DNA from: an uncultured Elusimicrobia bacterium | GTDB lineage: Bacteria; Elusimicrobiota; Elusimicrobia; JACQPE01 | Direction of reading: 5' to 3' | Assembly: GCA_964357255.1 (NCBI GenBank) | Contig: CAYHKQ010000001.1 | Coordinates: 5,018 to 69,017 of the forward strand | DNA length: 64,000 nt | Part shown: one piece after another, positions 9,774 to 51,431 of the stretch | How positions within the stretch are numbered: the first letter of the stretch is position 1 | Layout: each line of letters starts with the position of its first letter | The notes under the pieces: model-generated | Databases searched by the model: none | The model's input: the letters and a program-made list of their open reading frames with translations, nothing else | Told to the model about the DNA's origin: nothing | Made by a program: the position numbers and the translations under genes

Positions 9774-9774
9774 A

Positions 9775-10053: not shown

Positions 10054-10193
10054 TCGGCATTAAGGATATTAAAAAAGTGATTTATAATCTATGGTCGGAA
10101 GGTAAATTAAGGCCGACAAGTCCGGAAAGAAAAAATTATTTTTCTAACCTTGCGCACATTGTCCACCTTGTCCGCTTTATCTGCTTGTGTTGT

Positions 10194-10265: not shown

Positions 10266-10294
10266 TTCTCTAGTATTTTTTTTCTAAATTATTA

Positions 10295-11500: not shown

Positions 11501-11536
11501 GTCTAAATTAATGGCGACACAAATGTTTAAAAAATT

Positions 11537-11609
<73 letters not shown>

Positions 11610-31653: not shown

Positions 31654-33641
31654 GAAAGTTTTTCCAAAATTTTTTTTGCCTGGAGGACGCCCTCGAGAAC
31701 CTCGCTGAGAATTTCCTGCGCCTCCTCTTGGCGCGCCGGGGCGAATCTTAGATAATGCAGGCTCTCAAGAGTTTGGCGCAGAGTTTGGACTTCGGCCGAC
31801 GAAATTTTACCCCGGGCTTTATTGGCGATTTCTTCCGGCAGAGTTTTGGGGGTGACGGCCTCGGCCAAGCCAAGGATTTGGCGCAGAGCGCCCTCGAGGG
31901 CCGGAGCCAGCGCGCCGGCCATTTCAATCGGTTTATTTTCTTGGGCAAGGACTGAGGCTTTTTTGATGGCGTCGGCCAGGCGTTCAAGGGGCCGGCTTTT
32001 TTTAGCCAGGCGTTTTTTTCGCGCCATCCCGATTGCGCTTGTGGCCAGCCACAGGAGAACCGGTAGCCCTCCCGCGCCGGCCCAGCGCCGCGTCAAAGTC
32101 ATGCTTAGGCGATGGAAAATCCCTGGCGCGGGTGTCGCCTCAATGATGAACCCGATGTCCTCGCCAAATTTTTTGGCGTCCCCGCGCCCTCCGGCGGCGC
32201 CGGAGGCCGTGTGGATCGGCTCGCCGGAAACATTGACTGAAAGCGGCCGGGTTTCGCGGCGCACGTAGCCCTTGGCCTTGGGATCAAAGTACACGAAGCG
32301 GATGGGAGGGATGATCAGAGCGGGGTTGCCGGGGACTTGCGGAATCAACAGAAGCTTGAAGGTTTTTTTGCCGCTGATTTTTCCGTCTTGCTTGGTTATG
32401 GTTTCCGTTTTTTCAGTCTCATAACTGCGGAAGACGCCTTCTAAATTGGGATAGGCCGGGCTCGGCAAGCTGCGGATATTGCCTTCGCCGGAAATGGCGA
32501 CCGTCAGAGTCAGCGTGTCGCCGATTTTAATGCCGGTTTTATCGAGCCCGGCTTCGAGATCGAATTGGCCCACGGCGCCGGAAAAATCCCTGGGGCGCGA
32601 CTCCTGCGGCAGGGCAAAGGCCGTGATTTCCACGGATTTGGTTTCCAGGAGATGGGTCTGGCCGGATCCTCCGCCGAAGAAACGTTGAAAAAATTGCGGA
32701 TCAAAAGGATCGTTTGAGCCTGCGCCGGCCTGTTCGATTTCCATCTGAACCTTGGCCGGGCTGATTTTGAGCTTGCCAGGATTGGTCGGGAAGAGAATCA
32801 GGGGGATTTCCGTGGCTTGATAAGGAGTTCCGCGCACGTTGGTTTGAAAGGTTTTCTGCGGCAAATTTTCCTGCCAGAATCCGCTCGTATTGGGCGGAAC
32901 ATACTGAGGTTGCGAAAGGAAAGCGACGCGGGTGTAGAAAAGAACGGAGAGTTTGACGGGCTCGCCGACATACGCCTCATGCTTATCCGTCCTGGCTTCA
33001 ATAAAAACCAGAGGCGGCGCTTCTTCCGGGGCCTCCTTGGGTCCCTTGCGGCGGGTCTCGCCGTCCGGGCCTGGGCCCGGAGATTGGGCTCGCTCAGCGC
33101 GTTTGTCTTCGAGCATTTGCCGGGTTGTGCGAGGGAAATTCGGCACGGCAAAGGGTTGGATGATCCCCTGGGGCGCGCCCTGCACCTGGGCGGATTTTTG
33201 GTCCGCGACTTCTATGGACACGGTATTGGAGGCGATTTCCTGGCCGCCGCCGGCGTCAATTTTGGCGGGACCAAGTTTATATGCTCCGGGCTTTGACGCG
33301 GATAAAAGCAATGTGTAGATTACGCTGGTCGTCATTTTCCAGTTGACGATTTCGACTTTTTGGCTCTTCGATTGGGAATAGACGGAGAGTTCCGGCGGGA
33401 TGATGATTTTGGGTTCACTCAAGCCCCCTGAACTTCCGTTGACGGAAATTTCAAGCGCCGCGGTGTCGCCGAGGAGCATTTTGTTTTTATCCAGGCGCAG
33501 GACGATCTCGACACCGGCCCACAGGGGGAAGGCAAAAAAGGCCATAAACGCCAAAGAGGCCAAAGAGGCGAAGGAATAAATATTTTCCTTATAGCCTTTT
33601 TGGCTTTTATGGCCCCCGGGGCTTCTTTTGCCTTGTTTCAT
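31650..33641 (-). CDS. batD: BatD-like protein (oxygen-tolerance family)
   Basis: 663 aa, N-terminal signal/TM, a large beta-rich ectodomain, a TM near the C-terminal third followed by a helical tail. 4-nt overlaps with both neighbours. Confidence 0.6.
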   Translation of the reverse strand: MKQGKRSPGGHKSQKGYKENIYSFASLASLAFMAFFAFPLWAGVEIVLRLDKNKMLLGDTAALEISVNGSSGGLSEPKIIIPPELSVYSQSKSQKVEIVNWKMTTSVIYTLLLSASKPGAYKLGPAKIDAGGGQEIASNTVSIEVADQKSAQVQGAPQGIIQPFAVPNFPRTTRQMLEDKRAERAQSPGPGPDGETRRKGPKEAPEEAPPLVFIEARTDKHEAYVGEPVKLSVLFYTRVAFLSQPQYVPPNTSGFWQENLPQKTFQTNVRGTPYQATEIPLILFPTNPGKLKISPAKVQMEIEQAGAGSNDPFDPQFFQRFFGGGSGQTHLLETKSVEITAFALPQESRPRDFSGAVGQFDLEAGLDKTGIKIGDTLTLTVAISGEGNIRSLPSPAYPNLEGVFRSYETEKTETITKQDGKISGKKTFKLLLIPQVPGNPALIIPPIRFVYFDPKAKGYVRRETRPLSVNVSGEPIHTASGAAGGRGDAKKFGEDIGFIIEATPAPGIFHRLSMTLTRRWAGAGGLPVLLWLATSAIGMARKKRLAKKSRPLERLADAIKKASVLAQENKPIEMAGALAPALEGALRQILGLAEAVTPKTLPEEIANKARGKISSAEVQTLRQTLESLHYLRFAPARQEEAQEILSEVLEGVLQAKKILEKLS

Positions 33642-33643
33642 GT

Positions 33644-34330
33644 TTACCAGTCATTCTCCACATTTGTTTCCTGGGAGCGGCGTTTTTTCATTTTTTGGGC
33701 TTGCTTCATTTGCTCTTGCTCGAAGGAATCGAGGAGCGACTGTATAGCCTGTTGGTCCATTTGGGACTCTTCATTTTTTTTCTGTTGGTCCTGTTTGTCT
33801 TCCCCCCCTCCCTGGCCGCCGGAATTTTTTTGGTTCTCCGGGGGTTTGGTAAGCCTCAGCGCCAGGGCCAGATTATGCCGCGCGTCCTCGTCTGCGGGAT
33901 TGAGCAATAGAGATTTTTTGTACGCTTCAACCGCTTCCTGGGTTTTGTTCTGACTGTAGAGCGCGTTGCCCAAATTGTACCAGCTTGCCGCTTGAAGTTT
34001 CGTGTCTTTGGCTGACGATTGTCTTGATTGGGCAAAGGATCGCGAGGCGTCTTCTAGGTCGCCTAGTTTATATGTCGCGCAACCCTTATTAAATTGAATG
34101 ATGGGATTTTTTGGATCGAGCCGGCCGGCCTGATTGAACGAGTTTAACGCCGATTGGTAATCGCCTTTTTTGAATTGGTCCGCCCCCTCCCGCGTGGGAG
34201 GCTTCCAGGAAGCCGCATGAGGAAAGGTGAATGAGGTGAACAACGTCAATAAGGTAAACAATGCAAAAGACAACCAAAGAGTATTTTTTTTAACCTGATT
34301 CGCCTCATTCGCCTTATTCATATTATTCAC
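33644..34330 (-). CDS. batC: BatC-like TPR protein
   Basis: N-terminal TM, TPR repeats (YQSALNSFNQAGRLDPKNP, NLGNALYSQNKTQEAVEAYKKSLLLNP), a C-terminal charged low-complexity tail. Confidence 0.6.
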   Translation of the reverse strand: MNNMNKANEANQVKKNTLWLSFALFTLLTLFTSFTFPHAASWKPPTREGADQFKKGDYQSALNSFNQAGRLDPKNPIIQFNKGCATYKLGDLEDASRSFAQSRQSSAKDTKLQAASWYNLGNALYSQNKTQEAVEAYKKSLLLNPADEDARHNLALALRLTKPPENQKNSGGQGGGEDKQDQQKKNEESQMDQQAIQSLLDSFEQEQMKQAQKMKKRRSQETNVENDW

Positions 34331-35343
34331 TTTCTTTTTTTCTCCGGTATCGCCATTTCCGCCAGTAGCAACATAAATCCGACGGCCAACGGAATCTGGA
34401 ACCGGTTTTGAAGTCGCGTCCTTATTCCTTTGTCCTTTTTAGAGTCCGGATTGTTCACGATGGACCCGAGCTCCGCTTGCGGATCAGCGCTGTTATCGAG
34501 CCGGATAAACCGGCCCCCTGTCTTAGCCGTTAGTTCTTCCACCGAATCGGCCTTAGCGCGCGTTAGAACCGTTTTGTCCTCTCGATTCTTTTTATACCCT
34601 AAAAAATTTCCATTTTCATCTTTTAGTGGAATGGGTTCGCCTTCCGGAGAGCCGACCCAGAGCGTGGAGACCCGGATGCGGTTTTTAAGGAGGGGGCCGG
34701 TCATGCTACGCGCGTCCCCTTCGTGATTTTCGCCGTCCGTAACTAGCAGGACGTCGCGCGCGCCGGCCACTTTAGACAAAAGATTCTGCGCGGTTTTTAA
34801 GCCCGCGGCGATGTTGGTTCCGGGATGAGGCAGGCTGCCGGGAGCCACGGTTTCAAAAGCAAGACGCAGGGCGCCGGCGTCGAGAGTCAGGGGGCATTGC
34901 AGGTAGGCTCGGCCGGCGAAGGTGACTAGGCCCAGGCGAGAGAGGGCTTGAGCGCTACTCTTGGCGTAGGCGGAGATGATCTCGAATTTGGCGCGCTCGA
35001 AGCGGCTCGGTTTGATGTCTTGGGCCAGCATAGAGTCCGACACGTCCATCACAATTATGAGATTGTTGCCCAAGAGCGGCGTTTTCTCAAGGCGCGCGCC
35101 CCATTGCGGCCCGGCCAGGGCCAGGACGCTAAAGAATAAGGCGGCAGTTAAAAGCCAGGCTTTGGAACCTCGAAGGTCGAGCCCGCGTCCCGATGCCAGG
35201 AGCGAGCGAAGCGTGTGCGACGCGATGAGCCGCGCTAAAAGCCGGTTGCGCTTTCGCGGCAGCCAACGCAAGGCGGCCAGAGCCAATATCCCGCCATAGA
35301 GGAAGAACCACAGAAATTGAGGAAAAGCGAATAAATCCGTCAT
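34327..35343 (-). CDS. batB: BatB-like von Willebrand factor A domain membrane protein
   Basis: Two N-terminal TM segments and a VWA domain with the MIDAS motif DVSDSM. Confidence 0.7.
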   Translation of the reverse strand: MTDLFAFPQFLWFFLYGGILALAALRWLPRKRNRLLARLIASHTLRSLLASGRGLDLRGSKAWLLTAALFFSVLALAGPQWGARLEKTPLLGNNLIIVMDVSDSMLAQDIKPSRFERAKFEIISAYAKSSAQALSRLGLVTFAGRAYLQCPLTLDAGALRLAFETVAPGSLPHPGTNIAAGLKTAQNLLSKVAGARDVLLVTDGENHEGDARSMTGPLLKNRIRVSTLWVGSPEGEPIPLKDENGNFLGYKKNREDKTVLTRAKADSVEELTAKTGGRFIRLDNSADPQAELGSIVNNPDSKKDKGIRTRLQNRFQIPLAVGFMLLLAEMAIPEKKRK

Positions 35344-36368
35344 GGCAAAGTCAGCAGTAGCGTGCCGCGCAGAAGGATTTCGGTTCCCAAGAGAAACAGA
35401 GCCGCCATGAGTAGCGGCGGATACAGCTCTTCGTAGTGATGCGTCTTGGGCGGGGCGGCCTCGGTTTTTTCAAGGCGGTCGATTTCTTCGAAGATTCCCT
35501 TGAGTTCGTTGAGTTCCGTGGCCCGGAAGTATTTCCCCTCCGTGATTTCGGCGACCTTGGTGAGCGTATCCTCGTCAATCTCTTCCTCAGGCCGGCGAAT
35601 ATAGCGCGTTCCGAAAATCGGGTCCACCACAGGGAAAATTCCGCCGCCCCGCTTTCCGGTGCCGATGGTGTAGATTTTGACGCCGAGCGCTCGCGCTGTT
35701 TTGGCTCCGGTGACGGGGTCCACGGATCCCGCGTTGTTTCTGCCGTCCGTCAGAAGAATAATGGTTTTTGATTTGCTCGGGACTTTTTTGAGATGCGCCA
35801 GGGAAACCATAATCGCGCTACCTATGGCCGTGCCGTCGGTTTGGGTCATATTGATTTCGACTTGCTCTAAGAAACTTTGCACGGCCTGTTTGTCTAGCGT
35901 CAAGGGGCACGCGAGGATAGCCGCCCCTCCAAAGGCCACAATGCCGATGCGATCTGAGCCGCGTTTATCCACGAACTCCGAGGCGATTTTTTTGGCGCCC
36001 TGAAGGCGGTTGAAGGGCTGAAAATCCAGGGCTTGCATCGAGCCCGAAGTGTCGAGGGCGAGCGCGATGTCGACGCCGAGCAAGGGTTCCAGCTGTTCAG
36101 TGGTCACTTTTTGCGGCCGCATCAGGGCCAGGACCAAAACGGCCAAGGCGGCCGCGCGAATGAGGGCAAGAATTATAGAGGACGGGTGGCGTCGGCGCAG
36201 GCCGCTTTGTTGATTTAACAATTGATAGTTATGTTCCGCTTTGGAGTAAATCAGGGCGGCTGAAGCCGAGACTTTCTTATGTTTGAGGATTTGGATGATC
36301 AAAGATACGCCGAGTCCAAGAATCAGGCAAGCCAGGCCGAGCCAGGGAGATGCGAACTCGAGTTTCAT
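35340..36368 (-). CDS. batA: BatA-like von Willebrand factor A domain membrane protein
   Basis: N-terminal TM and VWA with MIDAS DTSGSM...TDG. Confidence 0.7.
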   Translation of the reverse strand: MKLEFASPWLGLACLILGLGVSLIIQILKHKKVSASAALIYSKAEHNYQLLNQQSGLRRRHPSSIILALIRAAALAVLVLALMRPQKVTTEQLEPLLGVDIALALDTSGSMQALDFQPFNRLQGAKKIASEFVDKRGSDRIGIVAFGGAAILACPLTLDKQAVQSFLEQVEINMTQTDGTAIGSAIMVSLAHLKKVPSKSKTIILLTDGRNNAGSVDPVTGAKTARALGVKIYTIGTGKRGGGIFPVVDPIFGTRYIRRPEEEIDEDTLTKVAEITEGKYFRATELNELKGIFEEIDRLEKTEAAPPKTHHYEELYPPLLMAALFLLGTEILLRGTLLLTLP

Positions 36369-37339
36369 GCGGTCTTTTGCGTTGCCGCGTTTTCCGGCTC
36401 CGCCGCCGGCGCAGGGCGCGCTCGGTGCGCCTCGACAAATTCTTTAAGAATCGTCACTGCGTGGGCGTTCTCCCCGTCGTCCGGCGCGTATTTGGCGAAT
36501 TTGGCAAGGTCGGTAATTTCAAGGCTTTCTTTTAAGCGAATCACGGCCGGCAAGTCAACGCCCAGGCTCTGGCGCTCCCTGTGCAGGAGGCGCGTGAGTT
36601 CCGCGCTGGTCAAGCTTTGGGTGTCGAGGCTAAAGCGCCGGTCAAGATACTTGCGGTAAATCTCGCTTAACGCGAAATAAAATTCCCGGTTTTTTCGTGA
36701 TTCCAAGAGGCGCATCTGAATCAGCGCGGCAAGATCGCGCTCGAAAGTTTCTTCAGCGCTGAGCTTGGATTGCGCCTGACGTCCGGCTTGAGCCTGGATT
36801 TTATGACGCGAGCGCAAAAACCATAACAGCGCCAGGATTCCCAGAATGCCGCCCACGCTAAAGCCGGCAATCACCCATGGCTTCTCCCAGAAGTAAAGGG
36901 GTTTTCTGGGTCGCTTGATATCCCGAAGCTCGGCCGGGTTTTTCGCGTTGTGCGTGGGGTCGAGAATTTTAAGATGAACCGGAGGGGTTTTAACGACAGT
37001 CGTTTGCCCGATGGTTCCTTGGGCGGGAATTTCCAAACTCGGCACATCCATATCTCCGATTTTAAACGCCATCAGCGCGACGTCCAGCATGGTGATTTTT
37101 TTGTCGCCGTCTTTGCCTTCCTTGGAATGGAAATCCCACAGCGTAAAATCCCCCCATTGAGTTTGGCCGGTTTTCCAAGAGGTTAAGTCAATTTTGACGG
37201 CATTGCCCGAACGAATCGTGTAGGCAATGGCTACCGGATGGGCCAGGGGAACCTCGGTTTGCCTGGGTTTGGCTTCAACGCCGATAGTTTCCTGGCCGAA
37301 GGCAAGGGTTATTAGGAGTATCCAAATTGAACTGTTCAT
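36365..37339 (-). CDS. DUF4381-like membrane protein (the usual upstream partner of batA)
   Basis: Signal peptide, KILDPTH...IKRPRKPLYFWEKPWVIAGFSVGGILGILALLWFL (the ILDIRPP...PW motif plus a TM). Confidence 0.45.
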   Translation of the reverse strand: MNSSIWILLITLAFGQETIGVEAKPRQTEVPLAHPVAIAYTIRSGNAVKIDLTSWKTGQTQWGDFTLWDFHSKEGKDGDKKITMLDVALMAFKIGDMDVPSLEIPAQGTIGQTTVVKTPPVHLKILDPTHNAKNPAELRDIKRPRKPLYFWEKPWVIAGFSVGGILGILALLWFLRSRHKIQAQAGRQAQSKLSAEETFERDLAALIQMRLLESRKNREFYFALSEIYRKYLDRRFSLDTQSLTSAELTRLLHRERQSLGVDLPAVIRLKESLEITDLAKFAKYAPDDGENAHAVTILKEFVEAHRARPAPAAEPENAATQKTA

Positions 37340-38895: not shown

Positions 38896-40437
38896 ATGAG
38901 CGCGGCCACTGTCGAAAAGAAGCAAGGTCTGAAAACTCAAAAGGCTCGCGAATTTAAAATGTTGCTCGGCGGGCGCTGGTCTGGCGCGGCAAGCGGAGCC
39001 ATAAGGACCTTAGTGAATCCCGCCAATGCCAAGCCCTTGGCTACGGCGCCGGAGGCCGGCGTCAAGGACGTAAATTTTGCCGTGGCCCAGGCCAGGAAGG
39101 CTTTTGAAGACGGCCGCTGGTCCAAGAAACCCCCCTGTGAACGTTCGCTAACCCTCTTTCGCTTGGCCGACAAGATCGAACAAAATATTGACGCTCTGGC
39201 CGAACTCGAAATAGCCAATTGCGGCAAGCCCCGAAAATTGGCGCGCGAAAGTGATTTGCCTTTTGCCATTGATAATGTGAGGTTTTTTGCGGGAGCCCTC
39301 AGAACATTGGGCGGCTCCGCGTCGCTCGAGTATGCCGGCGGTTGCACAAGTATTATTTGCCGCGAACCCATCGGCGTCGTGGGGCTCGTGGCCCCGTGGA
39401 ATTACCCTTTTTTGATGGCAGTTTGGAAAATTATGCCGGCCCTGGCCGCTGGTAATGCGGCTATTTTTAAGCCTTCGGAATTGACGCCGCTGACTGCGCT
39501 TGAACTGGGGCGTTTGGCTTTGGAGGCCGGGATACCCGAAGGCGTTTTGCAAATCGTGACCGGAGCCGAAGAGGCGGGCCGGGCGCTTAGCGCGCATCCC
39601 GGGGTGGACATGATTTCTTTTACCGGGGACACGCAAACCGGCAAAAAAATTCTGGCCCAGGCCGCGCCTACTCTGAAAAAATGCCACATGGAGCTTGGCG
39701 GCAAAGCGCCTTTTGTCGTTTTTGCCGATGCTGATTTAGAAGCCGCGCTTCAAGGGGCCGTGGTGGCGGGCGTCGTCAATGCGGGGCAGGATTGCACCGC
39801 GGCCACGCGCATCTATGTCGAGGAAAAGCGTTATGACGAATTTCTAGAGAGGTATGTGAAATTAATGAAAACTGTCCGCGTGGGCGATCCCTTGAACAAA
39901 CTGACCGACATGGGCCCTTTAATCAGCAAGAATCAGAGGGATCGGGTGGAAGGCTTTGTCCGCCGCGCCTTGTCCGCCGGCGCCAAGGCCCTTTGCGGCG
40001 GCGAGCGGCCTTCCTCGGCCGAAACCAAGGACGGTTATTATTTTCTTCCTACCGTGATCGTCGGCGCCAAGCAAGATTCTGAGATTGTGCAGAATGAGGT
40101 TTTCGGCCCGGTTGTTTGCGTTTTGCCTTTTAAGACCGAAGAGGAGGCTGTCCGGCTGGCTAATGATGTGCGCTATGGCCTGGCTTCGAGCGTATGGACC
40201 AAGGATGTTCATAGGGCTTGGCGGGTTTCAGCCGCGCTCAAATTCGGCACGGTCTGGGTTAATGATCACTTGCCGCTGACATCCGAAATGCCGCATGGCG
40301 GCTGTAAGTCCAGTGGTTTTGGCAAGGATTTATCGGTTTGGGCCCTCGAAGAGTACACCCAGATCAAACATATCATGGCCGACACCACTGGCCTGGCCCG
40401 AAAACCCTGGCACTACACCGCCTTTGGCTCAGTCTAA
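38896..40437 (+). CDS. NAD-dependent aldehyde dehydrogenase (aminobutyraldehyde/betaine-aldehyde DH-like)
   Basis: Catalytic glutamate MELGGKAP; NAGQDCTA; 513 aa. Confidence 0.8.
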   Translation: MSAATVEKKQGLKTQKAREFKMLLGGRWSGAASGAIRTLVNPANAKPLATAPEAGVKDVNFAVAQARKAFEDGRWSKKPPCERSLTLFRLADKIEQNIDALAELEIANCGKPRKLARESDLPFAIDNVRFFAGALRTLGGSASLEYAGGCTSIICREPIGVVGLVAPWNYPFLMAVWKIMPALAAGNAAIFKPSELTPLTALELGRLALEAGIPEGVLQIVTGAEEAGRALSAHPGVDMISFTGDTQTGKKILAQAAPTLKKCHMELGGKAPFVVFADADLEAALQGAVVAGVVNAGQDCTAATRIYVEEKRYDEFLERYVKLMKTVRVGDPLNKLTDMGPLISKNQRDRVEGFVRRALSAGAKALCGGERPSSAETKDGYYFLPTVIVGAKQDSEIVQNEVFGPVVCVLPFKTEEEAVRLANDVRYGLASSVWTKDVHRAWRVSAALKFGTVWVNDHLPLTSEMPHGGCKSSGFGKDLSVWALEEYTQIKHIMADTTGLARKPWHYTAFGSV

Positions 40438-41007
40438 TTTTTCTGCGGCAGTTTCTTCCTCTTTGAGTAATTTCTCACCCATTTGAGAATGACCGCGCAG
40501 GGTATCAGCTTCCCTTTCCGCGCTTTTGGCGGGGAAGTAGGCGACAGCCCATCCTGCCACAAATAAGCCGGCTCCGCCGAAAAAGAGGAGAGCCCCCAGA
40601 ACCGGCAATCCGCTCATTCCAATGGCCACGCTTGCCCAAGAGGTTGCGAATCCTGGAATGGCAAGAGACCACGATAAAACATGCAACGCGGTTGCCTTTG
40701 AGGAGGCGTTTTGCGCCTTTTCTTCCCAGTAATTTTTTGCGGTTTTAAGAAGAAATTGATTACGTTGCCGTTGCTTCATTTGGTGGTTTTTACGCTCAAG
40801 CCCGGCATCGTCCTGGGCGATATCTCCGATTTGGACAGGCGCATTTGGCGTATTGCCTTGAGGCGCGGCGCCATGCATTAAATTTTCCACGATTATTTTG
40901 CCTTGAATTGCTTGATCTTGCGAAGTGGGGCTGGGGTTGGCCAAAAGACTAGCAACACAGCCACCGATCGCACTGACAGTAATAAGAATTTTTTTGTTGG
41001 TTAGCAT
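40429..41007 (-). CDS. Hypothetical membrane protein
   Basis: Start taken at MLTNKK (AAGGAG SD); the longer ORF-track start lacks an RBS. N-terminal TM/signal, C-terminal hydrophobic segments. Confidence 0.4.
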   Translation of the reverse strand: MLTNKKILITVSAIGGCVASLLANPSPTSQDQAIQGKIIVENLMHGAAPQGNTPNAPVQIGDIAQDDAGLERKNHQMKQRQRNQFLLKTAKNYWEEKAQNASSKATALHVLSWSLAIPGFATSWASVAIGMSGLPVLGALLFFGGAGLFVAGWAVAYFPAKSAEREADTLRGHSQMGEKLLKEEETAAEKLD

Positions 41008-41128
41008 AGTCGTTCTCCTTCGTTGTCTCCGCTTTATACTCGGACAAGGGGCTTGCTGACTGCCACCTTTCGTCCGCTGTTTACATATATATTGTAACAA
41101 AGTGGAAGGGGTCATTCATTTTATTTTT

Positions 41129-41432: not shown

Positions 41433-42044
41433 TTAAAAGTGAACGGCCAATTTGTCTTTTTGGACTTCGAATTTTTGGATGCCGTAGGGCAGAGGAAAGA
41501 GGCGCGAGAAGTCCATGGGCGGGCGTTGGTTTTCGCCGAGATACCGAAGAATTTGGCTGACCAGACTTTCCGGAACGGTGATTCCATTAATTTTTAGGGA
41601 AAGGACTTTGACATAGCCTTTGCCTTTGGCCGATCCGGATTGAAGTTGGGCCTCGATTGTGCTGCCGATGCCGCCGGCCTTGGCCAACAGTTTTGCGCTC
41701 ATTGAATTGCTATCCGCCTTAAAAACTTTTTTCCATTCCACGCGCGCTACGGCCCGGACCGTCAGAAGCTTGTCGCCGAGAAGAGTAATATTAACGGATT
41801 GTATTTGATCCTTCCCTTTTTGAGCCGCGAGATTGGCCAGATAGGCGTTGAGTTCTTCTTCGCTTACGGCGACCGTCTTGCCGCTCAGGGGCGAACGTTG
41901 GCCGGGATTAGTCACGTTTTTGATTTTTTCAACGATGTTGTGAATTTTATGGATGGCCGTTGCGCTGGCGTTTATGGATGCCACGGACGCCGCGTTTGTC
42001 CCCGCGGCTAAGGCGGCGCCAATAAGAATTTTTAGAATCGTCAT
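41433..42044 (-). CDS. Hypothetical secreted protein
   Basis: Signal peptide MTILKILIGAALAAGTNAASVAS. No diagnostic motifs. Confidence 0.35.
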   Translation of the reverse strand: MTILKILIGAALAAGTNAASVASINASATAIHKIHNIVEKIKNVTNPGQRSPLSGKTVAVSEEELNAYLANLAAQKGKDQIQSVNITLLGDKLLTVRAVARVEWKKVFKADSNSMSAKLLAKAGGIGSTIEAQLQSGSAKGKGYVKVLSLKINGITVPESLVSQILRYLGENQRPPMDFSRLFPLPYGIQKFEVQKDKLAVHF

Positions 42045-43336: not shown

Positions 43337-45466
43337 ATGGATCAACTTCCATCGCGGTCATGGCGCGTTGCGGCGATAGCTGGGCTTGGCTTGACGCAAT
43401 TTTTTGCGTTGCCGGATTTAAGAGCGGATGATCAGGCTAGCCAGGTCCAGGCCGGCCTTGAGAGCGAGTTTGACGGCGCCAAGGCGGCTAAACCGAGCCG
43501 CAAGAAAACCGCGGTCGCGGTTCCTGCGGCGTCGTCCGAACGGCCGGAGCCGGAAAAAGAGCCGGAGCCATCCACGCAGAAGCGGACCGGCGAAAAACAA
43601 CTCAATGAAAGCGGCGCCTCCAAGCAGGTTCTTCCCCGTTGGCCGCCCATTGTTCATGTCAAATTAAGCGATTATCAGGTGGAGGAGTCTCTTATTTTTC
43701 CCATGACGACAGGATTTTCCCTTGGAACCAGAGCCGGATTGATTTCCGCTCAAAGCTTTTTGGGCGGATCAGACTTGCCCTTCGGAACCCTGTTGCCCAG
43801 CCCTTACGGAACATTGAGTTCAAAATTTAAGCATCAGGGTAAAGGCATAGATGTTATGACTCTTGTGACAGGCGGGTATCTTTATTTGAACACGGAGCCA
43901 AGCCTGCCCAATGTCAGGACAAAGGTTTCGGGTCCGGCGTGGTTGAAAGGAGGCAAGGATGACAATGGTTTGGTCGCCGAAGGCTTGGTTGCGGGGAGCT
44001 TTTATTCCGACGTAATTTCTCCATGGCGAGTGGGCGGCCGTGCTGCTTTGGCCGCTTTTGGCGGGGGCGGAGTTTTTGGAATGGGGAATTTTTCAGATGC
44101 CTACACATGGCAGGGCATGTTGGACGCGAACGCGGGAGTGGCATTGGCCGTTAAGGTTGCGGATTCGGAGATGCTTCGCTACTGGGTTCAGGGGGAGGCG
44201 GCAATGGGGCAGGCGGATTCTTATCGTAATATTACCGAGAAGGGAGTGCCCAACTGGGCTTTTTTTTACGAGGGGATCAGCATGGGCGCGGATTATTCGC
44301 GTTATCTTGGGCCTTCGCAACATATCCGCGCCTGGTCGCAAGTCGCCGCGCGGATGCCTTATACCGACTTTATGATAGGCGCGGATTATGCCAAGGACGC
44401 CATAGTTGTTTCCCCGTCGGTGATGGCCAGGGTGAGCCATAGCCCGTGGTTCGCCAATGAGCAGGGCGGGGCTCTGAAAATCGGATTGCGCCCTCTCGAC
44501 AAGCTGGGCGTTGATTTGACCGGCTCCTTGGCCGCTCGAAGCGATATCGATGGGCGGGCGTTGTCTGAGAATTATTCGATCCAGGCCGGTCTTTCCTGGA
44601 CGCCGGGGGACGGCGTCAACATTAAAACGAGCCGTTATCTGGCCAGGCAAGTTTATGATACTCCTGATCCGAAACTTATCCAAGCGTTGGACAAATCTTA
44701 TGAAAACATTGATCAGGAGTTTATTGATGGTTTCAAGGAGGCGGTCAAGGCGTCGCCCGACTTGCCTTCGTTCGCGCGGAATTTGAATGTCGCAAGCTTG
44801 CGGGACATTCTTTATGCGGCGTCCCTTATGACGGGTTTTCAAGACGTTGTAAATTATAATTCTAATGAATTTTCCGTTCCTAATGCGCAGAGCGACGATG
44901 AGATTTATGGGCGTTGGAGGGCGGCCTACATGGATTTATTGGCGGACCCTGAGAGCCGCGGCGACCCCATGCTGGTTTGTATCGGCTCGGCGCAGAGCGC
45001 GTCCGGACTTGTCATGGCTTTGAGCAGAAAATTGGGTTTAGATCTTCAAGCTGGGCCGGTGAGCGTGGTCAAGCGCGGATCGGAAATTGGCCTGACAACG
45101 GCGCACGCGGCGGCCATTATCAGAAGTCCGGAGGAAGGATTTTTCTTTGTGGACTTTGGCGACATCATGCCGACCGGCACCTTTGATCCTGACGCGGCCT
45201 TGGCGATTTATCAGGCCAAGAGAGGCTCCGTGAGCGTGTCGCATTATTTTGGCGACGTCTCCCGTGGCGGCCGCACCGAAGCGCGCAAAATCAGCGAACA
45301 GGGCAAAATTGTGTTGGACGCGGTTTCTTTTTATGGAGACCCGGAGCTTCCAAGGTCGCGCGAGCGGGAAATGTACAACCGCGATCCCAGGAGTTCGGAA
45401 ATCACCCGAGATCGGGCCCTGGAGTCCTTGCGCAAGACATTGATGCCTCAGGAGGAAGCTGAATAA
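43337..45466 (+). CDS. Large secreted protein: N-terminal beta-barrel-like region plus a C-terminal transglutaminase-like cysteine-protease-like domain
   Basis: Signal peptide, a Pro/Glu/Lys-rich linker, a beta-rich Gly/Tyr/Trp region. C-terminus has a Cys...His...Asp arrangement (MLVCIGSAQSASGLVMALSRKLGL ... TAHAAAIIRSPEEGFFFVDFGD) resembling the transglutaminase-like superfamily. Confidence 0.35.
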   Translation: MDQLPSRSWRVAAIAGLGLTQFFALPDLRADDQASQVQAGLESEFDGAKAAKPSRKKTAVAVPAASSERPEPEKEPEPSTQKRTGEKQLNESGASKQVLPRWPPIVHVKLSDYQVEESLIFPMTTGFSLGTRAGLISAQSFLGGSDLPFGTLLPSPYGTLSSKFKHQGKGIDVMTLVTGGYLYLNTEPSLPNVRTKVSGPAWLKGGKDDNGLVAEGLVAGSFYSDVISPWRVGGRAALAAFGGGGVFGMGNFSDAYTWQGMLDANAGVALAVKVADSEMLRYWVQGEAAMGQADSYRNITEKGVPNWAFFYEGISMGADYSRYLGPSQHIRAWSQVAARMPYTDFMIGADYAKDAIVVSPSVMARVSHSPWFANEQGGALKIGLRPLDKLGVDLTGSLAARSDIDGRALSENYSIQAGLSWTPGDGVNIKTSRYLARQVYDTPDPKLIQALDKSYENIDQEFIDGFKEAVKASPDLPSFARNLNVASLRDILYAASLMTGFQDVVNYNSNEFSVPNAQSDDEIYGRWRAAYMDLLADPESRGDPMLVCIGSAQSASGLVMALSRKLGLDLQAGPVSVVKRGSEIGLTTAHAAAIIRSPEEGFFFVDFGDIMPTGTFDPDAALAIYQAKRGSVSVSHYFGDVSRGGRTEARKISEQGKIVLDAVSFYGDPELPRSREREMYNRDPRSSEITRDRALESLRKTLMPQEEAE

Positions 45467-45475
45467 GGGGGGTCC

Positions 45476-46396
45476 TTATCCGCCTTTCGTTTTGCGGCGT
45501 TGGCGTTTTTTGAATAGATCCGCTAGCGCGTCCGTAAAATTTCCCCTCGTGTCCAGGCGCAGGCGGTCCATGCCGCAATGTTTGAAGAGTCGTTCTAATT
45601 CTTCTTCCCGGCGGGCGTTTTCTTGATTAAGCAGGCTCACGAGATCGCCGCGGCGCAAATCAAGTTCGTGAACGGCGCCGGGTTGTTCCGCGTCCTCAAA
45701 GCGCGCAATGCCCGAGATGGCCGGCAGTTCCCTCTCCGCGGGGTCTTCCACGGTTATAGCTATCGTGTCGTGCTTTTTAGCCAGAACAGCCAGCTTTTTG
45801 GCGAAAGCCGGCGTTGCGTCATCGGCTCCGACCGGCGCTAGAAAATCAGAAATCAAAAAGACAATCGCCCGTTTTTTGATCATTTGCAGAAGATAACTTA
45901 AGGCGAATTCTATATTCGTTTGGCGCGATTGGGGTTCGAATCCCACTAACTCCCGCAGGATTCTTAAGGCGTGGAAGCGTCCCCCCTTTGGGGGCAGAAA
46001 AAGTTCGGCGCGATCGCTAAAGAGCAGGAGGCCCGCCCTGTCCTTATTTTTCATGGACAGATACGCCAGCGCGCCCGCGACGTCCTGGACGACTTCGCGC
46101 TTGGAGCGGGATTGGGAGCCGAAGTCCTGGGAGCCTGAAATATCCACGGCCAAAATTACGGTTAACTCGCGTTCCTCTGTGAAGCGTTTGATGAAGGGTT
46201 TGCCCGCGAACCGCGCCATAGCTTTCCAGTGCATGGCCCGGATGTCGTCCCCCCACTGGTATTCGCGCGCGTCGGAAAATTCTAGGCCCCGGCCCTTGAA
46301 CACGCTTTGATATTTGCCCGCGAACATTTCCTCCACCAGCTTGGCGCTGGTGATTTCGAGCCTGCGAATTCTAGCGATAAGTTCGGAGCTTAACAT
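45476..46396 (-). CDS. DUF58 protein (MoxR-associated, VWA-like)
   Basis: DUF58 core GEYQWGDDIRAMHWKAMARFAGKPFIKRFTEERELTVILAVDISGSQDFG. Confidence 0.75.
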   Translation of the reverse strand: MLSSELIARIRRLEITSAKLVEEMFAGKYQSVFKGRGLEFSDAREYQWGDDIRAMHWKAMARFAGKPFIKRFTEERELTVILAVDISGSQDFGSQSRSKREVVQDVAGALAYLSMKNKDRAGLLLFSDRAELFLPPKGGRFHALRILRELVGFEPQSRQTNIEFALSYLLQMIKKRAIVFLISDFLAPVGADDATPAFAKKLAVLAKKHDTIAITVEDPAERELPAISGIARFEDAEQPGAVHELDLRRGDLVSLLNQENARREEELERLFKHCGMDRLRLDTRGNFTDALADLFKKRQRRKTKGG

Positions 46397-46426
46397 CGGG
46401 ACAGAAGGAGCCCCTTAGTCTTTTTT

Positions 46427-47968
46427 TTAAGGGGCCTGGTTGGTGAAACGAACGCTGACCTCGTTTCCTTCGACGGCGAGCGAACCGGGTATATCCGCGT
46501 CCAATTTAAATCCATTCTCTTCAATTTTAAGATTTTGGAATGCCCAGGAGCCGTCCGTTAAGACGAGGGGCTTGCCGTCTAGAAAAATGGTCCCGTCACC
46601 CACGAGGTTGGTTTCGGGGTTTGACATGTTGCGAAGGAGAATGATCCGCCCTGAGGCGCTTAAAGCATAGCCTGGGCCGCCGATTTCAAAGTCGCCGCCT
46701 TTGATGAGCCAGCCTTCCGGCAGGTCATCATATAACTCGCTTTTAGAAATATTGAAGCCGGAAACCTTCTTGGGCATGAGCCGCAAACGGCGTCCCGGGG
46801 CGTTCTTAAATTCATTCATGGCCTCATCCCGCGAGGTTGTGTAAGTTTGGATTTTTTGTTGGGCCTCGGCTAGCAATATGTCGTATTGATATTGGCTCTT
46901 GGCAAGGTTCAAGCGATTTTGGGATTCGATCTCGCTCAAAGGCCAAGCTACGCTAAGCGCCTGCCAGGGGTTTTGCCCTTGTTGGATTTTTTTTCTCCAT
47001 TGCCCGGCGACAAGGCCGTCGAGCAGATAGCATTGCGCGGCGCCGGTTATGTAATAGCGCCATTTTTTCATCATGTTGAAGTGCAGTTCCTTTTGAAGTT
47101 CCATTGACAATTTTGTCCGTGGATTTTGATAAAAGGCGGTTTCAAGGGCCTCTAGTTCAACAAATCGCGCCGTGCCTTCATTGCGCTCCTGCCACGCTTC
47201 GGCATTTTGAGCTTCTTGGGATAGCCGTTGATACCGGGCCTGGCGGATGGCGATGAAATTTTTTGTTTTTTCAAGGCGTTGCGGCCACGCGGTCGCGCCG
47301 AGCGCATCGGCCAGGGTTCGCTGTTCTAATGCGGCCAAGGCAAGATTAACTTCATCCAGCACAGGATAATTTTGGTTGCCGCCGCTCGATGATTTCCAGG
47401 AATCTTGGAAGCCGTGGAATCGTTCATGGACTACGGTTGCAAATGTTTCATCGGCGCCGGCGCCTGATTCAACGCGATAGAGAAAAGCGCTCTGGCCGTT
47501 AATCTGATAGTCAAAATCCATGTAAGGGGCATTGGAAATGCCGCCGTTGAGAATATAAACGGGGACGCGCGGGGCGCTTGGCGCCGGGTAGCGCAGGTAG
47601 CCGTCTGGAGGATCGGCCATGGCGATTAAGATGGCCGTTTCCCCGGGCGTATTAAGAAGAATTGGTTTGTCAAAAACTTTGTAGCCCGGCCATAGGGCTT
47701 CTATTTTAGCCGCGCTTGTCGCCAGTTTAGAAACTAACGATTGAAAGGAAGGTGAAAGCAGTGGGGGCCGAGAAGCCGGGCCGGATATTTTGATCTGTCC
47801 AAGATTCAGCGGCCCGATCAGGACAGGCTGGGCCGAGCGGCCATGAAAGACTTGCTGAATTCTCGTATGAACGCCGCCGGGGTCTTGGCCCCAGAGGGGC
47901 AAGGCGGCTAAAGCAAATAAGGTCAATGAGGCGAAAAAGGCAAGGCCAATCGCTCGCTTCAATAGCAT
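46427..47968 (-). CDS. Hypothetical secreted protein with an HERFH (HExxH) motif
   Basis: Signal peptide MLLKRAIGLAFFASLTLFALAALPLWGQ; TFATVVHERFHGFQDSW; 513 aa. Confidence 0.35.
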   Translation of the reverse strand: MLLKRAIGLAFFASLTLFALAALPLWGQDPGGVHTRIQQVFHGRSAQPVLIGPLNLGQIKISGPASRPPLLSPSFQSLVSKLATSAAKIEALWPGYKVFDKPILLNTPGETAILIAMADPPDGYLRYPAPSAPRVPVYILNGGISNAPYMDFDYQINGQSAFLYRVESGAGADETFATVVHERFHGFQDSWKSSSGGNQNYPVLDEVNLALAALEQRTLADALGATAWPQRLEKTKNFIAIRQARYQRLSQEAQNAEAWQERNEGTARFVELEALETAFYQNPRTKLSMELQKELHFNMMKKWRYYITGAAQCYLLDGLVAGQWRKKIQQGQNPWQALSVAWPLSEIESQNRLNLAKSQYQYDILLAEAQQKIQTYTTSRDEAMNEFKNAPGRRLRLMPKKVSGFNISKSELYDDLPEGWLIKGGDFEIGGPGYALSASGRIILLRNMSNPETNLVGDGTIFLDGKPLVLTDGSWAFQNLKIEENGFKLDADIPGSLAVEGNEVSVRFTNQAP

Positions 47969-48207
47969 AGGTCAATTTTGTCATGAGATTCAATCTCAAG
48001 CCAGGGCCTAAAGTCCCAAATTCTTCCGGGACTCTGGGCCGCTAAATTTACCCCGAAAGTCCCTGGTTGGCCTGTTGGAAATGGGAAATCGGGAAATCGG
48101 GGGGCAGTGTGCCAAGAAAACTTATCAGGACTAGAAGGATGCAATGTCCTTTCCAGCCAAAGCCTTGAAGATATACCTATTTAGGTATATACTTATAAGG
48201 GTATATA

Positions 48208-48570
48208 ATGGCGCTCAAAATAAAGTACTACCCCCATGGTGACTCTGGTGAAGTTCGTGAGTATCTGGAGGCATTGCGGCAGGATGGCCAGAGAAAGAAG
48301 GCGGCGGTCAAACTGGATATCGATCTGCAGACGCTTGAGGAGTTTTGGCCTAAAACCATGAATGTGACAGTCAGAACTCTCAAAGGGCGGGAACCCTTGA
48401 AGGAGATTAAAAGACGCTTTGACAAGATCGCTTACCGGATTTTTATTTGCATCAAGAAGAGCGAGCTTTGGCTTCTTTCGGCCTATGAAAAGGAATCGGA
48501 TGATACGCCTAGAAATGAGCTCGAAAAAGCTTATAAGCGAATGAAGGAAATTTTGGAGGCGAAACCATGA
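48208..48570 (+). CDS. Type II toxin, Gp49/COG4679 (HigB/RelE-like) family
   Basis: 120 aa; KIAYRIFICIKKSELWLLSAYEKESDDTPRNELEKAYKRMKE (phage-derived Gp49-like killer motif). 4-nt overlap with a downstream XRE gene. Confidence 0.6.
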   Translation: MALKIKYYPHGDSGEVREYLEALRQDGQRKKAAVKLDIDLQTLEEFWPKTMNVTVRTLKGREPLKEIKRRFDKIAYRIFICIKKSELWLLSAYEKESDDTPRNELEKAYKRMKEILEAKP

Positions 48571-48914
48571 AAAGAAAAAAACAGGAAATTCAATTCGACC
48601 AAGATGTGCGCAAAGCCATTGAATCTGACCCTGAATATGCAACAGAATATTTTGAGGAGCTTATGCAACGTCCTCTTCCCGTGCAATTTGCGCTTTTGCG
48701 TAAGTTTCTAGGCATGACCCAGGAACAACTGGCCAGAGCCTTGGGGCTTAAACAAACCCACATCTCTAGGCTTGAAAATGTGGATTCTGACCATCTTTTG
48801 AGCCTTTATAAGAGGGCTGCCGAAAAGATGGGATCTCGTTTGGCCATTGTCCCAGAGAATATGACTCTGGTCCCTAGAGATTATCTCCAGAAGTTCCATT
48901 CAGCGCATCTTTAA
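48567..48914 (+). CDS. XRE-family HTH antitoxin (HigA-like)
   Basis: HTH LRKFLGMTQEQLARALGLKQTHISRLENVD. Translationally coupled to the toxin. Confidence 0.6.
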   Translation: MKRKKQEIQFDQDVRKAIESDPEYATEYFEELMQRPLPVQFALLRKFLGMTQEQLARALGLKQTHISRLENVDSDHLLSLYKRAAEKMGSRLAIVPENMTLVPRDYLQKFHSAHL

Positions 48915-48920
48915 GAAATC

Positions 48921-49030
48921 GTAACTGATCCGTGATTCCGCAGTTGGCTTGTCACCACCGCGAAGGCGGGGCCCAGACTCCGACGAGACCCGGATTCCCG
49001 CTTTCGCGGGAATGAGTGTGCCAAGAGGGT
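48921..49030 (-). repeat. Degenerate, inverted copy D of the MITE-like repeat
   Basis: Begins gtaactgatcc and contains ccaccgcgaaggcgggg and cccgctttcgcgggaatg. These are reverse complements of the two hairpin modules of copies A and C, in swapped order. The far end has decayed. Confidence 0.4.
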
Positions 49031-49066: not shown

Positions 49067-49504
49067 CTAAGGCGTATTGCAGGAAACCTCTACGTCATAA
49101 CAAGTAGTGCACGAAGCAAGTTCGGAAGACTTTTTGGTTTCAAAAGCCGATGGCTTCGATGACGATAGGGGCGAAATTTTGCACTCACGAGAGCTTGGCC
49201 AATTCCCGCTCCCCGTGCATTGCTTGAAACATTTCTTGGCAAGATCACTATCGGGATTAGCTTGTTGGAAAGCTTTGCGCTTAAGCAAACATATTTTATC
49301 AATCTCCTCCTGATTGGTAAAGTTGCTTCTGATATTCTGTGTTCTGGAGTTGTCTATTTTTTCTTGCATGGACTGGCTTTTTTGTAGCGATAATTTTTTA
49401 TCCGGCAGTTTTTTTTCTTCGGCGCGCAGACCCGTCGCCAGGCAACCTCCGACGGCAAGGACAAGCGCGCACGTTAGCGCTTTTGATTCTTTTGTTATTA
49501 GCAT
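49067..49504 (-). CDS. Small Cys-rich putative lipoprotein
   Basis: Signal with LAVGGC lipobox-like cysteine; 9 Cys in a 145-aa, Lys/Ser-rich protein. Confidence 0.35.
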   Translation of the reverse strand: MLITKESKALTCALVLAVGGCLATGLRAEEKKLPDKKLSLQKSQSMQEKIDNSRTQNIRSNFTNQEEIDKICLLKRKAFQQANPDSDLAKKCFKQCTGSGNWPSSRECKISPLSSSKPSAFETKKSSELASCTTCYDVEVSCNTP

Positions 49505-49599: not shown

Positions 49600-50595
49600 T
49601 TATGGAACGCTGATCGTTTCGAGGATTTCGTGGATGATGTCTTCGCTCGTGATGTTTTCGGCTTCGGCTTCGTAGCTTAGAAGCACGCGGTGGCGCAGGA
49701 CGTCAAAGGCGATAAGGCGGATGTCCTCAGGCGTGACATAACCCCTGCCTTCGAGAAAGGCGGAGGCTTTGGACGCCTGGGCCAGATAGAGCGTGGCCCG
49801 GGGACTCGCGCCGTAGGCGATCAAGGATTTGAGTTTTTCAAGTTTGTGGTCCTGTGGGAACCTGGTGGCGAAGATGATTTCTATGATGTAGTCCTTGAGT
49901 TTGGGGTCGAGGTAAATTTGGCTCAACGTTGCGCGGGCTTGTAAAATTTCTTCGGTCTTAAGGAGCGGATGGGGTTCGCGCCGGCCGTTTTGCCCTGCGT
50001 AGAGGTCTAAAATTTCAAGCTCGGATTTTTTTGAGGGATAGGTGACTTTTAGTTTTACCAAGAATCGGTCCACCTGGGCCTCGGGAAGAGGGTAGGTGCC
50101 TTCCTGTTCAATCGGATTTTGCGTGGCCAGGACTAAGAAGGGTTCCGTTAATTTGAAGGTTTCATCCCCAATCGTGATTTGTCGCTCTTGCATCGCTTCC
50201 AGAAGGGCTGATTGGGTTTTGGCCGGCGCGCGATTGATTTCGTCAGCCAGAACGAAATTGGAGAAAATCGGGCCTTTTTTGACGATAAAGGTTCCGTCTT
50301 TGGGATGAAAAATCGGGGTTCCCACGATGTCGCCCGGCAGAAGATCGGGCGTAAATTGAATCCGGGAGTAATCCGCCTGGATGAGTCGGGCAAGGGTTTT
50401 CATCGCGAGCGTTTTGCCCAGGCCAGGCACGCCTTCTAAGAGGATATGCCCGTTTGCCAAGAGGGCCAGAATGGCTTTGTGAACTAAATCTTCCTGCCCG
50501 ATGATGAATTTTTCAAGCTCCCGCCGGAGTTCTTGAAATGGCAGGGCCTGTTGACGGATGATCTCAGAGATTTGCTTTAGACTTAATGTTTCCAT
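49600..50595 (-). CDS. MoxR-family AAA+ ATPase
   Basis: Walker A GVPGLGKT, Walker B VLADEINRA, sensor motifs; 331 aa. Confidence 0.9.
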   Translation of the reverse strand: METLSLKQISEIIRQQALPFQELRRELEKFIIGQEDLVHKAILALLANGHILLEGVPGLGKTLAMKTLARLIQADYSRIQFTPDLLPGDIVGTPIFHPKDGTFIVKKGPIFSNFVLADEINRAPAKTQSALLEAMQERQITIGDETFKLTEPFLVLATQNPIEQEGTYPLPEAQVDRFLVKLKVTYPSKKSELEILDLYAGQNGRREPHPLLKTEEILQARATLSQIYLDPKLKDYIIEIIFATRFPQDHKLEKLKSLIAYGASPRATLYLAQASKASAFLEGRGYVTPEDIRLIAFDVLRHRVLLSYEAEAENITSEDIIHEILETISVP

Positions 50596-51431
50596 AAAAA
50601 TGGTTTCACCTCGTATTGAATTTTTCCTTTTTCGGGCCAGGCTTTCAAGAGCCGATGCATGGCCATGACCCGCCAGCCTGGATCCGGGCTGAATTTTTCC
50701 GAGCCCACGACTAGGCGGCGGCCTTCATTCTCAAGCCGCAGGGCCATGCGGTTGTAGGGCTGATCTCTCAGGCATAAGGACTTGCGCTCAACGAGCATTA
50801 GCGAGTGGCATAAGGCCCAGAGATTCCGGCCGTCGGAGATCGCGGCGTTTAAGCCCGTGTAGGGAAATTTCCAATTATTTTTTTTGGATTTGGGCAGGGA
50901 TCGCCACAATTGCCAGATTTCTCGCACCGTTTCAACCAGCGCTTCCGGGATTTTTTTGGTTTTGTCATACCACTTGCACAGAATCCAAAAGTAGATTTCG
51001 CTGTCGTTTTTTCCCTCAAGTTTGCGACGATACGCTCCCAGGAGCTGATCGCGCGCCGCGGCCGCGATGTTGAGAGTTCCGTTATGGGCGAAGGCCAGAC
51101 GGCCAAAGCCGAAAGGCTGGTTATGCTCGCGCGCGATTAAATCTTTGCGGGGAAGTTTCAGGGGGTTTGAGGCGGCGCGAATATGGGCGATGACGATGCG
51201 CGAGGAGCTCTTAGCGGCCTGTTCGATGAACAGGGGGCTTTCTCGGTAAGCGGGGTTGGGGCTTTTGAAAATGTGAAAACCGCCCGGGGCGAGCGTTGCG
51301 ACGCCCCATCCGTCCTTTTGAAGAAAATTTTTTTTTGCCTTGCTCTGCGCCAGCAATGAAGCGCGGGATTTAACGAGATATTCCGAGGGATTGTGGGGCG
51401 TTACGCTGAGTTGAGCAAAAATTCTGCACAT
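50583..51431 (-). CDS. Class II (Ntn) glutamine amidotransferase domain protein (YafJ-like)
   Basis: N-terminal nucleophile MCRIFAQLS; the GATase2 fold; 282 aa. Confidence 0.65.
   Translation of the reverse strand: MCRIFAQLSVTPHNPSEYLVKSRASLLAQSKAKKNFLQKDGWGVATLAPGGFHIFKSPNPAYRESPLFIEQAAKSSSRIVIAHIRAASNPLKLPRKDLIAREHNQPFGFGRLAFAHNGTLNIAAAARDQLLGAYRRKLEGKNDSEIYFWILCKWYDKTKKIPEALVETVREIWQLWRSLPKSKKNNWKFPYTGLNAAISDGRNLWALCHSLMLVERKSLCLRDQPYNRMALRLENEGRRLVVGSEKFSPDPGWRVMAMHRLLKAWPEKGKIQYEVKPFLWKH

Follow-up and report, generated by a model that had tools for sequence, protein, structure and literature searches.

The stretch of DNA analysed here, which we call the window, comprises 64,000 nt of contig CAYHKQ010000001.1 from an Elusimicrobiota metagenome-assembled genome (MAG; assembly GCA_964357255.1). 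At the locus of interest a gene for a DUF58 protein lies between two open reading frames (ORFs) that encode large proteins of 709 and 513 amino acids (aa), both labelled 'hypothetical protein' by NCBI, and a gene for a MoxR-family ATPase is found further along. A preliminary description of this DNA had reported that DUF58 is flanked in this way, and actually all three ORFs are present; it had also proposed that the two large proteins and MoxR form an envelope protein-remodelling system. We consider it likely that this locus holds three neighbouring units of separate function, which came to lie together through the splitting of a Bat (Bacteroides aerotolerance) cluster: DUF58 would belong with MoxR and the Bat proteins, and the 709-aa and 513-aa proteins would each be separate. 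The four genes are the following:

43337-45466, plus strand: 709-aa protein (ORF)
45476-46396, minus strand: DUF58 (VWA-like) protein, 306 aa (PF01882)
46427-47968, minus strand: 513-aa protein (ORF)
49600-50595, minus strand: MoxR-family AAA+ ATPase, 331 aa (AAA_3, E 3.6e-64; AAA_lid_2, E 7.8e-23)

Gene order and the proposed split of a Bat cluster

The 306-aa protein matched DUF58 (PF01882) with an E value of 1.8e-63 and 214 bits, the cut-off being 23.4, and VWA_2 with an E value of 2.5e-14. It is 42% identical to the DUF58 protein of the Bat operon of Parabacteroides distasonis, and the MoxR protein of the window is 58% identical to its counterpart there. The order of that operon is MoxR-DUF58-hypothetical-VWA-VWA-TPR-BatD-TPR, and the Bat order is likewise contiguous in Rhizobium, Pantoea and Rahnella. 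A tblastn search with the Parabacteroides Bat proteins, the ORF list and Pfam matches placed the remaining members of the cluster in one block of the window:

36365-37339, minus strand: hypothetical protein of the Bat block (tblastn, ORF list)
35340-36368, minus strand: BatA-like VWA protein (tblastn, Pfam VWA/VWA_2)
34327-35343, minus strand: BatB-like VWA protein (tblastn, Pfam VWA/VWA_2)
33644-34330, minus strand: TPR protein (tblastn, Pfam TPR)
31650-33641, minus strand: BatD (tblastn, Pfam BatD)
30865-31653, minus strand: TPR+SH3 protein (tblastn, Pfam TPR)

The window therefore encodes MoxR, DUF58, two VWA proteins, TPR proteins and BatD, all on the minus strand; their genes follow the canonical order but are not contiguous. 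The cluster is in three pieces, with MoxR as its first gene. MoxR and DUF58 are separated by about 3.2 kb, which hold a 145-aa ORF, a toxin-antitoxin pair on the plus strand and the 513-aa gene, and the gap of about 8.1 kb between DUF58 and the BatA block holds the 709-aa gene, ychF, two small ORFs, an aldehyde dehydrogenase and an aminotransferase. We propose that an ancestral cluster with the order MoxR-DUF58-x-BatA-BatB-TPR-BatD-TPR was split in this Elusimicrobiota genome, and that the two blocks of unrelated genes which split it explain the large secreted proteins seen on either side of DUF58. The expected partners of MoxR and DUF58 in this genome are the Bat proteins, not a transglutaminase; Bat proteins and MoxR have been discussed elsewhere (PMC3557215).

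The preliminary description had pointed out that MoxR-DUF58 pairs are often accompanied by a transglutaminase. This is true in other places, since PA2875-PA2874-tgpA are co-transcribed in Pseudomonas aeruginosa (PMC3507681) and aaa-atp, duf58 and tgm occur together in the PFNA cluster of bifidobacteria (PMC8430577, PMC6803598), but it does not hold for the Bat-type cluster found here. In a TgpA-type operon the transglutaminase gene would be co-oriented with MoxR/DUF58, immediately downstream of them and linked to them in a conserved way, and this is not the arrangement of the locus. The 709-aa gene lies on the plus strand downstream of ychF and is convergent to DUF58, with the two stop codons 9 bp apart. 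When we looked for a MoxR-DUF58-transglutaminase operon through DUF58 matches on plasmids, only Bat-type and other contexts were found.

Regarding the conservation of linkage, neither MoxR nor DUF58 occurred in any of 8 independent contexts of the 709-aa family (L012, L013, L014/L015, the P0023 contig, L016, L017, L112 and L114), and no neighbour was common to these contexts. A role of the 709-aa protein as local and exported counterpart of the transglutaminase partner is therefore not supported. For the 513-aa family, a tblastn search with the DUF58 protein of the window found no DUF58 near the homologue at any of 91 loci; the sequence downstream was 1.5 kb or longer at 57 of these and 3 kb or longer at 43. 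A MoxR-like gene was present at a single locus, about 5 kb off and on the opposite strand, and five gene-called contexts of 513-aa homologues were likewise without linkage to MoxR or DUF58. The largest neighbour family occurred at 6 of the 91 loci, mostly copies of one organism. Thus, co-occurrence with moxR/DUF58 gave no conserved linkage for either family and, the pair being of the Bat type, the proposed joint system with MoxR loses its footing. The data do not support the two large proteins as partners of MoxR/DUF58; they probably sit inside the broken Bat cluster by accident of gene order.

The 709-aa barrel protein

The 709-aa protein starts with a signal-peptide-like hydrophobic N-terminus (residues 1-30 approximately), compatible with export, which is followed by a disordered linker rich in Pro, Glu and Lys up to about residue 104. 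In the AlphaFold2 (AF2) model, built from a 33-sequence alignment (predicted local distance difference test, pLDDT, 87.3; predicted template modelling score, pTM, 0.84), residues 105-438 form the long antiparallel strands of an outer-membrane beta-barrel, in agreement with the barrel-like N-terminal half noticed before, and residues 445-709 form a C-terminal alpha/beta domain that bears Cys548, His590 and Asp606. A closed antiparallel barrel preceded by an export signal, which is what we would expect of an outer-membrane barrel, is thus present.

The word-index homology search returned only one or two relatives of this protein (one of them P0002), and an exhaustive HMMER scan of 1.84 billion representative proteins was needed to obtain a usable family, which has 39 representatives. 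Every genome match of the family was to Elusimicrobia. The module formed by the end of the barrel and the Cys-His-Asp domain, with the triad retained, also occurs inside two very large proteins, at about 2300-2850 in P0047 (5935 aa) and at about 1000-1130 in P0048 (1295 aa, Omnitrophota), and in both it is followed by hydrophobic segments resembling transmembrane ones. The 709-aa protein is probably a stand-alone envelope protein, found so far mainly in Elusimicrobia. Another Elusimicrobia MAG carries tandem paralogues of the family (156-2267 and 2289-4370 of L014; 703 and 693 aa).

Cys548 is the only cysteine of the protein, and His590 and Asp606 come after it. In the model Cys548 opens the helix 548-566, His590 lies within the strand 587-597 and Asp606 closes the strand 601-606. 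Across the family the cysteine and the histidine are each kept in 32 of 33 sequences and the aspartate in 32 of 32; the adjacent Trp607 is kept in 30. Only P0002, the closest homologue (47% identical), departs from this pattern, with Trp/Gly in place of the Cys and Tyr in place of the His, and it may represent a pseudoenzyme lineage; the other 31 full members keep both residues. Furthermore, the motifs Y507-N508, Y524 and W607 are conserved and peculiar to this family.

In order to compare the C-terminal domain with transglutaminases we used 8 transglutaminase proteins from plasmid records, all verified as PF01841 (Transglut_core) with E values from 1e-19 to 1e-28. The link was tested at the profile level because the fold searches were saturated by barrel matches. 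The hhalign comparison of the two alignments gave a score of 22.8 (P 0.004, probability 8%), compared with 10.4 for the reversed template and 9.5 to 18.3 for 30 templates with shuffled columns, all of them below the real one. In this alignment C548, H590 and D606 fall on the Cys, His and Asp/Glu of all 8 PF01841 proteins, with a 4-residue insertion in the C-terminal domain after the Cys, in the catalytic helix. The order of secondary structure in the model also fits a papain-like core, with the Cys at the N-terminus of a helix and the His and the Asp on the next two strands. These comparisons of profiles and models support the C-terminal domain as a putative remote transglutaminase/papain-like domain, with a similarity that is weak but specific, and the Cys-His-Asp arrangement suggested by the preliminary description thus turned out to be conserved and in register with Transglut_core proteins. 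Nevertheless, membership of Transglut_core as Pfam defines it is not supported, as neither the whole protein nor its C-terminal 279 residues had any match to PF01841, even at E values up to 10.

An even-stranded barrel has both termini in the periplasm, as in OmpA-type proteins. We infer that the 709-aa protein would be exported by the Sec pathway and would then insert a barrel of about 16 strands into the outer membrane behind its flexible linker. By analogy with the OmpA-type order of barrel and C-terminal domain, the latter would most likely be held on the periplasmic side. Its reaction, on a substrate in the envelope, would depend on the thiol and would be an acyl transfer or a hydrolysis, as in peptidases, amidases or transglutaminases. 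If residues 105-122 are one strand, the long indel-rich loops are on the same side as the C-terminus and the chain termini.

A bolder proposal, which we regard as rather doubtful, is that the 709-aa family represents a class of Elusimicrobia thiol enzymes, so far unrecognised, that are embedded in the outer membrane and in which a barrel holds a transglutaminase-like Cys-His-Asp domain. If this were true, the family could cross-link or trim envelope components covalently at the membrane, for instance by tethering outer-membrane proteins to peptidoglycan or by processing surface proteins while they pass the barrel. Our literature search found no description of an outer-membrane barrel that carries a transglutaminase/papain-like domain. 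If active, the 709-aa protein would be a thiol enzyme of a new type, tethered to the outer membrane, in a diderm phylum that has been little studied. This fusion of a barrel and a transglutaminase-like domain is more unusual than the 513-aa protein.

The 513-aa HExxH protein and the neighbouring genes

The 513-aa protein has a hydrophobic N-terminal signal or anchor (a 21-residue segment at about residues 5-27), which is also compatible with export. Its AF2 model (pLDDT 78.9, pTM 0.75) is disordered up to residue 69 and then shows a catalytic domain (73-388) and a C-terminal beta-sandwich (393-508). The catalytic domain consists of a small beta-sheet (103-165), the HExxH helix (172-189) and a helical bundle that includes the helix with E257, E261 and E264. 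The motif VHERFHG is at 180-186, so that HERFH corresponds to 181-185.

The word-index search gave 7-9 relatives. In the 7 homologues obtained by homology search, which are 24-28% identical, H181, E182, F184, H185, Q188, E257, E261, E264 and G265 are invariant. A pattern scan of metagenomes with HE.FH..Q gave 230 relatives, 49 of which were aligned; these are invariant at H181, E182, F184, H185, Q188, E215, R245, E257, E264, G265, Y306 and W324. Regarding the fold, 16 of the 17 top structural neighbours of the model are HExxH zinc hydrolases, nearly all of them peptidases, and the model has the thermolysin-like catalytic fold. E215, E257 and E264, all of them invariant and helical, are candidates for the third zinc ligand.

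No match to Pfam or NCBIfam was obtained with either of the two large proteins, whole or as sub-domains, even when E values up to 10 were allowed. Sequence and profile searches of the PDB with four alignments of these families gave only matches at the level of chance, and no curated family was found among the 49 members of the 513-aa family at E values up to 1. The preliminary description, which could name no characterised homologue for either protein, was right in this respect; both families are unannotated and built from known folds.

The invariant motif and the match of the predicted fold to gluzincin metallopeptidases agree with the metallopeptidase reading that the preliminary description had based on HExxH. 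Sequence conservation and the model support the 513-aa protein as a putative membrane-anchored or secreted zinc metallopeptidase-like enzyme of an unannotated gluzincin family. The HExxH helix would provide two zinc ligands and the catalytic Glu, and an invariant Glu downstream, either E264 in 'EGxAxY/F' or E215, would be the third ligand. The C-terminal beta-sandwich probably binds the substrate. The protein would thus act as a zinc-dependent peptidase anchored to the inner membrane or released from it. Only 30 nt separate the end of the 513-aa gene from DUF58, which lies downstream of it on the same minus strand; this short gap makes co-transcription plausible, and the two genes are probably co-transcribed in this genome only.

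The other genes around the locus are these:

48208-48570, plus strand: Gp49/HigB-like toxin (Pfam Gp49, E 2.2e-9)
48567-48914, plus strand: helix-turn-helix (HTH) antitoxin (Pfam HTH_3, E 2.3e-7)
49067-49504, minus strand: 145-aa ORF (no family)
50583-51431, minus strand: class-II glutamine amidotransferase / EgtC-like ORF (GATase_4, E 1.8e-13)
41433-42044, minus strand: 203-aa ORF (no significant family)
40429-41115, minus strand: 228-aa ORF (no significant family)

Since the toxin-antitoxin pair lies between MoxR and the 513-aa gene, we take this stretch to have been rearranged. Its G+C content is 0.476, compared with about 0.53 for the window, and an exact 12-nt direct repeat, AGTGTGCCAAGA, is found on both sides of the pair (48106-48117 and 49015-49026); this may be a trace left by an insertion or may be due to chance.

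The 145-aa ORF directly downstream of MoxR encodes 9 cysteines, and its N-terminus resembles a signal peptide; in the family scan its sole match was below threshold (E 0.06), to a CxxCx5CxxC peptide-modification-target model. On the other side of MoxR, the EgtC-like ORF (GATase_4) overlaps the MoxR start by 13 nt and is probably co-transcribed with it; this gene, joined here to MoxR, is foreign to canonical Bat operons. The 203-aa and 228-aa ORFs sit between the Bat block and ychF, with only a sub-threshold LmeA-like match (E 0.03). The 203-aa ORF has a signal-like N-terminus and, considered as a conserved divergent partner of the 709-aa gene, showed no similarity to the 202-aa ORF at the homologue locus L013. 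A promoter and terminator scan gave counts not above those of shuffled sequence, and an Rfam scan of the whole window found 4 tRNA genes only (8174-11609), far from the locus.

Alternative readings and known systems

Some observations weigh against the readings given above. The transglutaminase link comes from a weak profile-profile score, with an HHalign probability below 10%, and from the order of secondary structure; only one of the 33 family members touched PF01841 (E 0.05), and the two fold searches with the whole 709-aa model gave barrel matches only. The nearest homologue, P0002, has neither the catalytic Cys nor the His, and DSSP counts 17 strand elements, so that the parity of the barrel and the side of the C-terminal domain are tentative. 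The invariance of HE.FH..Q in the metagenome set of the 513-aa family is partly so by construction, and it is the other invariant columns that are independent evidence. Finally, the promoter and terminator scan found no terminator-like site on the minus strand in the 30 nt between the 513-aa gene and DUF58, and the two may have a functional link that would be specific to this lineage.

These points bear on the possible alternatives. MoxR, DUF58, the 513-aa protein and the 709-aa protein might after all be one envelope protein-remodelling system, in which the 709-aa protein replaces the inner-membrane transglutaminase of the TgpA type. The triads of MoxR, DUF58 and transglutaminase that exist elsewhere (PMC3507681; PMC8430577, PMC6803598) would fit this idea, as would the 513-aa gene lying so close upstream of DUF58 on its strand and the resemblance of the 709-aa C-terminal domain to Transglut_core. 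Nevertheless, we find such a system unlikely and largely refuted by the absence of conserved linkage, with MoxR or DUF58 in none of the 8 contexts of the 709-aa family, DUF58 at none of the 91 loci of the 513-aa family and the only MoxR-like gene there about 5 kb off on the opposite strand. Moreover, the 709-aa gene comes after ychF and runs towards DUF58 from the opposite strand, the MoxR/DUF58 pair is of the Bat type and has its usual VWA, TPR and BatD partners within the window, and a toxin-antitoxin cassette and other unrelated genes lie between the supposed parts.

The enzymatic readings of the two proteins have their own alternatives. In TonB-dependent receptors the plug domain is at the N-terminus and not at the C-terminus. 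This counts against a non-enzymatic C-terminal domain in the 709-aa protein, one that would belong to a porin-like or transporter-like barrel as its structural plug, for docking in the periplasm or for binding a ligand, with Cys, His and Asp serving structure or metal binding. Such a role would agree with P0002, which lacks Cys and His and is otherwise well conserved, with a pTM of 0.84 that implies a fixed arrangement of barrel and domain as in plugged transporters, with the TonB-dependent receptors (plugged barrels) that are the top Foldseek matches, and with the weak profile similarity to Transglut_core. However, exactly those residues that align with the known catalytic triad are the ones conserved in 32 of 33 sequences, and a helix that begins with the Cys, together with two neighbouring strands that bear the His and the Asp, gives the active-site geometry of papain and transglutaminases, so that we hold a non-enzymatic domain to be very unlikely. 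As for the 513-aa protein, the spacing between HExxH and the third ligand is short in M1 and M4, and the much longer one found here, about 79 residues up to 'EGxA', could point to a zincin-like fold without peptidase activity, for instance in a binding protein that depends on a metal or in an amidase whose substrate is not a protein but, say, peptidoglycan or lipid. This is highly improbable in view of the HExxH motif and downstream Glu that are invariant across more than 49 divergent members, and of the structural neighbours, of which 16 in 17 are HExxH zinc hydrolases and nearly all peptidases.

Our preferred reading is thus the split Bat cluster with two separate envelope proteins beside DUF58, in which the proximity of MoxR and DUF58 to the large proteins would be an artefact of the fragmentation, and guilt by association would lead to the wrong function. 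Two families without an anchor in Pfam, NCBIfam or the PDB would each gain a testable enzymatic assignment, and the 513-aa gluzincin family, with at least 230 metagenomic relatives, could join the peptidase classifications.

Compared with the known Bat cluster, the window has all the components, in the same order and on one strand, but contiguity has been lost.

LapG is a BTLCP protease, related to the transglutaminase-like superfamily. The C-terminal domain of the 709-aa protein resembles Transglut_core (PF01841; e.g. TgpA and the related LapG) in the order and spacing of Cys, His and Asp, with 42 residues from Cys to His and 16 from His to Asp, and, in the AF2 model, in the succession of its elements, where the Cys opens a helix and one strand comes before those that bear the His and the Asp. 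Its predicted location in the envelope is another likeness, since TgpA of P. aeruginosa has a periplasmic domain with transglutaminase activity (PMC3507681) and LapG is a periplasmic protease (PMC3032545, PMC4359373). However, the 709-aa protein falls below the Pfam threshold and has the 4-residue insertion after the Cys. Furthermore, its domain is carried on an N-terminal outer-membrane barrel, whereas that of TgpA is carried on inner-membrane helices and LapG is free-standing, and, unlike tgpA, its gene is outside any MoxR/DUF58 operon.

In OmpA the barrel comes first and the soluble domain after it. The 709-aa protein shares this order with OmpA-type proteins, but its C-terminal domain has an enzyme-like fold and is not the peptidoglycan-binding OmpA_C. 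Its barrel is only 5-10% identical to 16-stranded barrels (the TpsB transporters FhaC and CdiB, and general and specific porins), and in contrast to the TpsB transporters the protein has no POTRA domains. If residues 105-122 are one strand, the long variable loops on the side of the termini would be unusual among known barrels.

With respect to the gluzincins of clan MA(E), the 513-aa protein differs in the two extra helices that make up the 79 or so residues between HExxH and the EG motif, in the additional invariant residues Q188, E215 and R245, and in its C-terminal beta-sandwich and N-terminal membrane anchor or signal, besides having no sequence match in Pfam, NCBIfam or the PDB. It is like them (M1 aminopeptidase N and leukotriene A4 hydrolase, M61, M9 collagenase, M4 thermolysin) in having a beta-sheet subdomain, the HExxH helix and then a helix with an invariant Glu. 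The third-ligand motifs are 'NEGFA' in M1 and 'EG(F)T' in M61 (glycyl aminopeptidase), and the 'EGxAxY/F' of the 513-aa protein resembles both.

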